Virus record (IMG/VR): IMGVR_UViG_2690316345_000001
Span: 1 to 7,805 of that record
Length of the DNA stretch: 7,805 nt
Strand: one strand, 5' to 3'
Source: a virus
Taxonomy: Duplodnaviria; Heunggongvirae; Uroviricota; Caudoviricetes
Part shown: piece after piece, positions 3,237 to 4,047 of the stretch
How the letters are laid out: every line of letters begins with the position of its first letter
Position numbering within the stretch: the stretch's first letter is position 1
Program-made: the position numbers and the translations under genes
Notes under the pieces: generated by a model
Told to the model about the DNA's origin: nothing
Seen by the model: only the letters and a program-made list of their open reading frames with translations
The model's database searches: none

Positions 3237-3560
3237 ATGGATGCACAAACACGCCGCCGCGAACGTCGCGCAGAGAAACAGGCTCAATGGAAAGCAGCAA
3301 ATCCCCTGTTGGTTGGGGTAAGCACAAAACCAGTTAACCGCCCTATTCTCTCGCTGAATCGCAAACCGAAATCACGAGTAGAAAGCGCACTGAATCCGAT
3401 AGACCTTACGGTGCTGGCTGAATACCACGAACAGATTGAAAGCAACCTGCAACGTATTGAGCGCAAGAATCAGCGCACATGGTACAGCAAGCCTAGCGAA
3501 CGCGGCATAACATGCAGAGGACGCCAGAAAATTAAAGGTAAATCTATATCACTTATTTAG
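3237..3560 (+). CDS. N: Antitermination protein N (107 aa)
   Basis: From the ATG at 3237 the product is [28 protein letters not shown]..., the arginine-rich N-terminal motif of lambda N. SD aggag at 3225-3229. The supplied 133-aa ORF starts at an upstream in-frame Met within the nutL leader. Confidence 0.95.
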
Positions 3561-4047
3561 AAAATGCAGATTTAGGGAACAGATAGGAGGCGTTACACCT
3601 ATGGCATCTCATCCTATGGTTAGAAGGTGGTGCAAATCCTTCGTATTGAAGTATGGATTTCACAGAAGATTCATAGCATTGAGCGCAAAGATAGTGCATT
3701 GGCTGACCGGTATTTGCCGATTTTTTGAGACGATAAACCACCGTAGCAACAGTAGGTGTATACATCTCATAGTTTTTCTTTTCCTCTTCCCACTTAGAGG
3801 CTCGATTTATCTTTTCTTCAAGCTCAATAATCTTGTCCTTAGAAATCATCAAAAGCTCATTAAGTGACATTTGCTGCTGTTGGGCATCCATGAGCTTATC
3901 GACAAGTTCGTATGTTTTTTCTTTTACTGAGTAGTCTATTTGCATTTTCTGGATTTCCTTTACTGCGCCAACAGCACTCATCAGAGCACCTCCGGCACCA
4001 GAAACTGCATCTGTAATCCTACTTATTATTCCTTTTTCATCAGACAT
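3553..4047 (-). CDS. Hypothetical protein (164 aa): N-terminal Gly/Ala-rich hydrophobic patch, central coiled-coil-like region, C-terminal Cys4 zinc-ribbon motif; convergent with N at the locus lambda gives to sieB
   Basis: Minus-strand ORF; first ATG at 4047-4045 gives [10 protein letters not shown].... The supplied ORF begins 3 codons upstream at a GTG. Residues ~14-29 [16 protein letters not shown]; residues ~30-95 K/E/Q/L-rich heptad-like; C121-x2-C124-x23-C148-x2-C151. Its stop region overlaps the N stop by 8 nt (3553-3560). Family not recognised from memory. Confidence 0.6.

Follow-up and report, generated by a model that had tools for sequence, protein, structure and literature searches.

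SieB of phages lambda and P22 is a lysogen-expressed protein that aborts superinfection. Rip1 was described by Patel, McCarthy, Taylor et al. (2026, Nature 651:1060–1067), whose findings are used here as summarised in section 5 of PMC13434031. [quoted passage not shown] The cryo-EM structure reported there contains a 12-mer Rip1 ring assembled around an 11-mer ring of the small terminase, the N-terminal part of Rip1 being an amphipathic helix and its C-terminal half touching the small terminase ring. The same section presents the complex as a membrane pore and cites dye release from liposomes, cell rounding and holes in E. coli, from which premature lysis was concluded. Rip1 is also listed as a small terminase sensor in PMC13601566, and a conference report agrees with both of these sources.

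The gene and its product

The stretch of DNA analysed here (the window) comprises 7,805 nucleotides of a virus of the class Caudoviricetes (positions 1 to 7,805 of the IMG/VR record IMGVR_UViG_2690316345_000001). It represents a lambdoid early region whose direction is reversed relative to the lambda map: O, cII and cro lie on the minus strand, and the plus strand carries N and then, across the slot considered below, ea10, cIII, gam, bet and exo (assigned by colinearity with phage 434 and, for N, ea10 and Gam, by Pfam). Over positions 1–3547 the window follows the annotated record of phage 434 at 97%, and this colinearity was used to set the N coding region at 3237–3560. The features that define the context of the gene are the following:

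1852–2484, 434-type cI, then 2481–2885, Hex (colinearity with phage 434)
about 2936–3015, oL/pL, and about 3064–3080, nutL (colinearity with the phage 434 record)
3237–3560, plus strand, N antiterminator gene, the convergent neighbour (Pfam N36 match at 1e-25; colinear with phage 434)
3553–4047, minus strand, rip1 coding sequence (open reading frame list and translation; 163 of 164 residues identical to the Rip1 of phage HK446 in PDB entry 9oox)
4304–4672, plus strand, homologue of ea10 (DUF2528), which bounds the slot on the other side (Pfam PF10800 match at 3e-47)

The frame at 2481–2885 (plus strand), which overlaps the end of the 434-type cI, corresponds to Hex of phage 434, recorded there as a 'repressor protection protein' that shields the repressor from RecA-dependent proteolysis. 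It had no Pfam match, and its N-terminus resembles a signal or lipoprotein peptide, which is odd for a cytoplasmic RecA antagonist. The Rfam element Lambda_thermo (the cIII thermoregulator; 4732–4790, plus strand, 88.5 bits), an ordinary lambda feature, was found at the start of cIII (4745–4909). Relative to HK446 the window is a mosaic, with the cro-cI-Hex-pL segment (1411–3107) and the N-rip1 segment (3189–4283) common to both at 98–99% identity; the ea10-to-exo recombination module is of the lambda/434 type in the window and of the Erf type in HK446.

The minus-strand frame at 3553–4047 consists of 164 codons and a stop, with the ATG at 4047–4045 and the TAA at 3555–3553 (open reading frame list and translation). 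The TAG of N occupies 3558–3560 on the plus strand, and the two genes converge with an 8-nt overlap (3553–3560). A second possible start, the GTG at 4056, is present upstream; the ATG at 4047 is preferred because the deposited Rip1 chain has 164 amino acids. In a phmmer search of the PDB sequences the product matched chain L of entry 9oox, 'ring interacting pore 1 (Rip1)', at E=1.4e-105 over these 164 residues, all but one of them identical. The entry, released on 2026-02-04, bears the title 'Cryo-EM Structure of the Escherichia phage HK446 Rip1 in complex with the Enterobacteria phage T6 small terminase'. The single substitution is Y96 in the window protein against H96 in HK446 Rip1, and it falls at a position that is variable across the family and at which Y is the commonest residue (alignment of 18 sequences). 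The AlphaFold model of the product was matched by Foldseek to 9oox_M (E=3e-17, TM 0.89 on the target, rmsd 2.2 Å, 126 residues); Rip1 was the only PDB fold recovered with this model, no other falling below E=0.1 and the SH3-like matches to the beta domain being insignificant. At the DNA level, HK446 has the same cassette beside N with 99% identity, and phages ev099 and vB_EcoP-720R6 also bear the cassette beside N and encode a protein 100% identical to the window product.

The gene is thus rip1, already characterised in structure and mechanism and hence not new. These comparisons leave little doubt that it is an allele of HK446 rip1, and that its product most probably serves as a single-protein prophage defence, sensor and effector at once, acting by the ring-triggered pore as published. 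An earlier sequence-only reading of this DNA had placed a 164-codon gene opposite N with stop regions overlapping by 8 nt, and these coordinates were confirmed in the sequence; the Gly/Ala-rich patch at residues ~14–29 and the C-x2-C-x23-C-x2-C motif are likewise found at the positions it claimed, the cysteines being residues 121, 124, 148 and 151. Its label 'unassigned' and the novelty implied by it do not survive the near-identity to a characterised protein, a finding which that reading itself had named in advance as removing the novelty. The profile and structure comparison with SieB and defence families that it proposed left PF14163 and PADLOC unmatched and led, by Foldseek, to 9oox_M, with the same consequence. 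A candidate for a new function has in this way been replaced by a defence protein whose description and structure are published.

Protein architecture and distribution of the family

The AlphaFold2 model, built on an alignment of 23 sequences, has a mean pLDDT of 71, and the predicted secondary structure consists of a helix at residues 7–34, a long helix at 39–90 and a small beta domain at 93–158. The parts of the protein correspond to the following positions:

3946–4029, minus strand, residues 7–34, amphipathic helix at the N-terminus, rich in Gly/Ala/Ser and proposed to be membrane-active (predicted helix, low pLDDT)
3778–3933, minus strand, residues 39–90, long K/E/Q-rich helix (AlphaFold2 secondary structure, superposed on 9oox_M)
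3556–3771, minus strand, residues 93–164, C-terminal beta domain, corresponding to the half of Rip1 that touches the ring (strands within 93–158, pLDDT 81–88)
3595–3687, minus strand, Cys4 motif C121-x2-C124-x23-C148-x2-C151 (translation)

The hydrophobic moment at residues 5–22 is among the highest in the protein, and 124–126 of the 164 residues are modelled in the deposited 9oox Rip1 chains. The term 'coiled-coil', which the sequence-only reading had used for this product, is an approximate label at best, the model having one long helix and the N-terminal part being an amphipathic helix in the account of PMC13434031, section 5. All four cysteines are invariant across 18 aligned sequences, down to 24% identity, and the pattern CxxC-x18-30-CxxC was found in 138 of the 143 full-length cluster representatives. 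Judged from these alignments, the Cys4 motif is the hallmark of the Rip1 family, with a putative role in zinc binding.

When 1.84 billion cluster representatives were searched with a profile, 2,966 proteins passed E<=1e-3 and 1,393 of them E<=1e-10, and nearly all the profile matches listed are 150–175 aa long and aligned over the full length. In phage genomes, tblastn revealed homologues of ~53% identity in E. coli phages named in the manner of Myoviridae, of about 30% identity (E about 1e-17) in Casadabanviruses (D3112 orf25, JBD30 gp30, DMS3 and MP38) and of ~27% identity in HK620 (hkaP), HK629 and HK630. The whole imm434-N-rip1-ea10-exo arrangement is present at about 98% identity in five genomes.

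The distribution of the gene also bears on the possibility that the frame arose by chance antisense to N or is a decayed, functionless remnant. The lack of a strong consensus promoter is the one observation that this explanation can claim, and nothing else was found in its favour. The frame is intact and of full length, and it is identical or near-identical in three isolated phages. The 502-nt cassette occurs at >=99% identity in 97 of 5,426 complete E. coli genomes (all its 101 places in E. coli genomes being chromosomal), the homologues at 45–92% identity retain the full length and the motifs, and a solved structure exists. With all these facts against it, a chance or decayed frame may be practically dismissed.

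The annotation of rip1 lags behind what is known about it. No significant match for the product was obtained in Pfam or NCBIfam 20.0, and in PADLOC-DB v2.0.0 (2023), a library older than Rip1, the only match was the non-significant one to PDC-M53B (E=0.019). In PHROGs the product matched phrog_1244 only, labelled 'unknown function'. Every E. coli RefSeq record among the matches listed, as well as the phage records, calls the gene product 'hypothetical protein'. Rip1 is therefore a protein of known structure without a Pfam, NCBIfam or PADLOC model, and the sequence-only reading had no means of recognising it.

The slot between N and ea10

In lambda the interval between N and ea10 holds sieB, on the strand opposite N, and then orf28 and ral. 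Positions 3014–3560 of the window match lambda as far as the end of N, and the match resumes at 4153, upstream of ea10, with 98.5% identity from there on. The following features were distinguished upstream of rip1:

4063–4148, minus strand, block common with lambda sieB, presumably comprising the promoter and the 5' leader, with two ACCCCTACAG repeats (87% identity to lambda)
4080–4109, minus strand, weak promoter-like site, GTACCC, 18 nt, TAAAAT (lenient scan; lambda has TAAACT at the aligned position; a tentative assignment)
4057–4079, considered on both strands, hairpin separating the promoter-like site from the ATG (terminator scan; weak significance)

The block at 4063–4148 is aligned with the 86 nt that immediately precede lambda sieB; the alignment contains a 58-nt identical core and brings the ATG codons of rip1 and sieB into the same column. 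In HK446 the block is identical to that of the window. As far as this alignment can tell, the cassette replaces sieB precisely, and the sequence-only reading, which had put the gene in the slot of lambda sieB and antisense to the pL operon, is upheld on this point by the upstream block, the aligned ATG and the same orientation. About 340 nt of lambda (1703–2042 of the lambda comparison record), comprising orf28 and ral, are missing at window positions 4148–4153, and the phage lacks ral.

Position, orientation and upstream block are all those of lambda sieB, and HK620 hkaP, a distant homologue of the product, is recorded as 'putative superinfection exclusion protein'. These likenesses would be expected of a divergent SieB-type superinfection exclusion protein, which is the family usual at the N-adjacent position. 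The proteins themselves speak against it. BLASTP of Rip1 against lambda SieB gave E=9.4, and the product had no PF14163 match at E<=1, whereas lambda SieB, taken as the positive control, matched this family at 1e-29; PF14163 was also unmatched by the Rip1 homologues. The product shares 163 of 164 residues with Rip1, whose solved structure differs. A divergent SieB appears to be extremely improbable under these conditions, and the opinion of the sequence-only reading that the product is not SieB is corroborated. By sequence comparison Rip1 and SieB are not homologous; they are alike in position and orientation next to N, yet this likeness does not amount to family membership.

Phage 434 has in the same slot a gene on the pL strand (3569–4438, plus strand, of the 434 comparison record) for a 289-aa 'Nun C-terminal peptide-containing protein'. 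The N-proximal slot is thus known to accommodate at least three unrelated cassettes, namely sieB in lambda, rip1 in the window, HK446 and ev099, and the sense-strand Nun-like gene in 434, and the upstream sequence is common to at least sieB and rip1. The three unrelated occupants, together with this common upstream sequence, mark the slot as an exchange site for exclusion and defence genes.

Expression, proposed action and related systems

A standard sigma-70 scan upstream of rip1 gave no good match, the one match returned (4052–4025) overlapping the start codon and being within chance expectation, and the best site of a lenient hexamer scan had only 7 of 12 matches. In the absence of a strong sigma-70 consensus upstream we infer the expression of rip1 in the lysogen, and its transcription probably proceeds from the promoter region common with lambda sieB. 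The expectation of a lysogen-expressed exclusion or abortive gene, formulated from the sequence alone, proved right in kind, Rip1 being a prophage defence protein that aborts infection by a pore, while expression in the lysogen keeps the presumptive status just given.

The ACCCCTACAG element is a 10-nt direct repeat on the minus strand, at 4064–4073 and 4097–4106, the copies being ~33 nt apart. Both copies are kept between lambda sieB and rip1, and the intervening sequence has diverged. The repeat could be a binding site or a piece of a pL terminator structure. For the hairpin at 4057–4079 the folding energy is -10.5 kcal/mol with the plus-strand sequence (z=-2.1) and -8 kcal/mol with that of the minus strand (z=-1.7), both being statistically marginal. 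Read on the plus strand, it resembles a terminator for pL read-through; read on the minus strand, it falls within the rip1 leader and contains the GAGAG Shine-Dalgarno-like bases. A strong terminator-like hairpin with a T-run is situated at 4256–4277 (plus strand; -12.9 kcal/mol, z=-2.95), just upstream of ea10. It corresponds to the terminator annotated in the phage 434 record and would limit any transcript entering the rip1 upstream region from the N side. No Rfam RNA family was detected in or near rip1.

The orientation of the gene is retained in different genomic surroundings. In five lambdoid and Mu-like phages (HK446, HK629, HK620, RcWaterboi and JBD30) the homologue of Rip1 stands alone on the strand opposite the lytic genes beside it, and this placement fits expression in the lysogen opposed by lytic transcription. 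In JBD30, gp30 is located between both terminase genes on the opposite strand, in agreement with the published location of the Pseudomonas Rip1; in vB_EcoM-611R5 the homologue lies beside the repressor gene and opposite to the genes on one side. From this point of view one may tentatively propose that the conserved antisense orientation, perhaps together with the sieB-type leader under which rip1 lies in lambdoid phages, is a self-immunity device, in which convergent lytic transcription shuts off Rip1 upon induction of the resident prophage, and we regard this as possible and rather doubtful. If true, the convergent transcription would be that of pL/N in the phage considered here and that of the late operon in Casadabanviruses, and the antisense shut-off would take the role of the dedicated anti-defence proteins of Tab and TerI.

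The Rip1 identity is established directly in this work, together with the protein architecture, the conservation of the Cys4 motif and the position in the genome, and ring sensing and pore formation are taken from the literature on the HK446 protein, as given in PMC13434031 (section 5), and from the PDB title. On this basis, Rip1 would presumably be made from the prophage, probably via the promoter region shared with sieB. A superinfecting phage that has reached late gene expression would supply ring-shaped oligomers as the template; with E. coli phages the ring would be the small terminase, with Pseudomonas phages the portal. Around it, twelve Rip1 monomers would gather through the C-terminal Cys4 beta domain, and the N-terminal amphipathic helices would then make a pore in the inner membrane. 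Lysis of the cell or loss of its membrane integrity before virion maturation would protect the population. After induction of the resident prophage itself, convergent pL transcription would be expected to damp rip1.

The wrapping of Rip1 round the small terminase ring in the solved complex also permits another view of the protection, in which sequestration of the small terminase or the portal of the invader is its main cause and the pore is secondary. The prophage morons Tab and TerI do defend through a block of assembly or packaging, and Rip1 could act in a similar way. The cell rounding, liposome dye release, holes in E. coli and premature lysis reported in section 5 of PMC13434031 argue against such a scheme, and the conserved N-terminal amphipathic helix would be superfluous for simple sequestration. 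We consider sequestration as the main mechanism to be unlikely, and prefer the ring-triggered pore.

Tab of phage JBD26 and TerI of the Listeria phage phi10403S resemble Rip1 in being small prophage morons that act late, on virion-assembly or packaging proteins. [quoted passage not shown] Tab and TerI are unrelated to Rip1 in sequence and are provided with dedicated anti-defence proteins, and neither is reported as pore-forming. The SieB proteins of lambda and P22 (PF14163) share with Rip1 the slot, the orientation opposite N, the upstream block and the aligned starts, and the proteins are unrelated in sequence.

The closest relative, HK446 Rip1, is like the window gene in 163 of 164 residues, in the flanking N, in the upstream leader, in orientation and in length, and differs at residue 96 (H there, Y here). 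Beyond the cassette, HK446 continues with an anti-restriction gene and an Erf-type recombination module, whereas the window continues with the lambda/434-type ea10-cIII-gam-bet-exo. The Casadabanvirus homologues (JBD30 gp30, D3112 orf25, DMS3 and MP38) are more distant, with about 30% identity over 87% of the length, and are alike in size and in the Cys4 motif. The phages of the two hosts differ in the site of the escape mutations: according to PMC13434031, section 5, those of Pseudomonas phages affect the portal and those of E. coli phages the small terminase. Each of the Casadabanvirus homologues is a single gene that runs against the lytic operon around it, just as rip1 does in the phage considered here.
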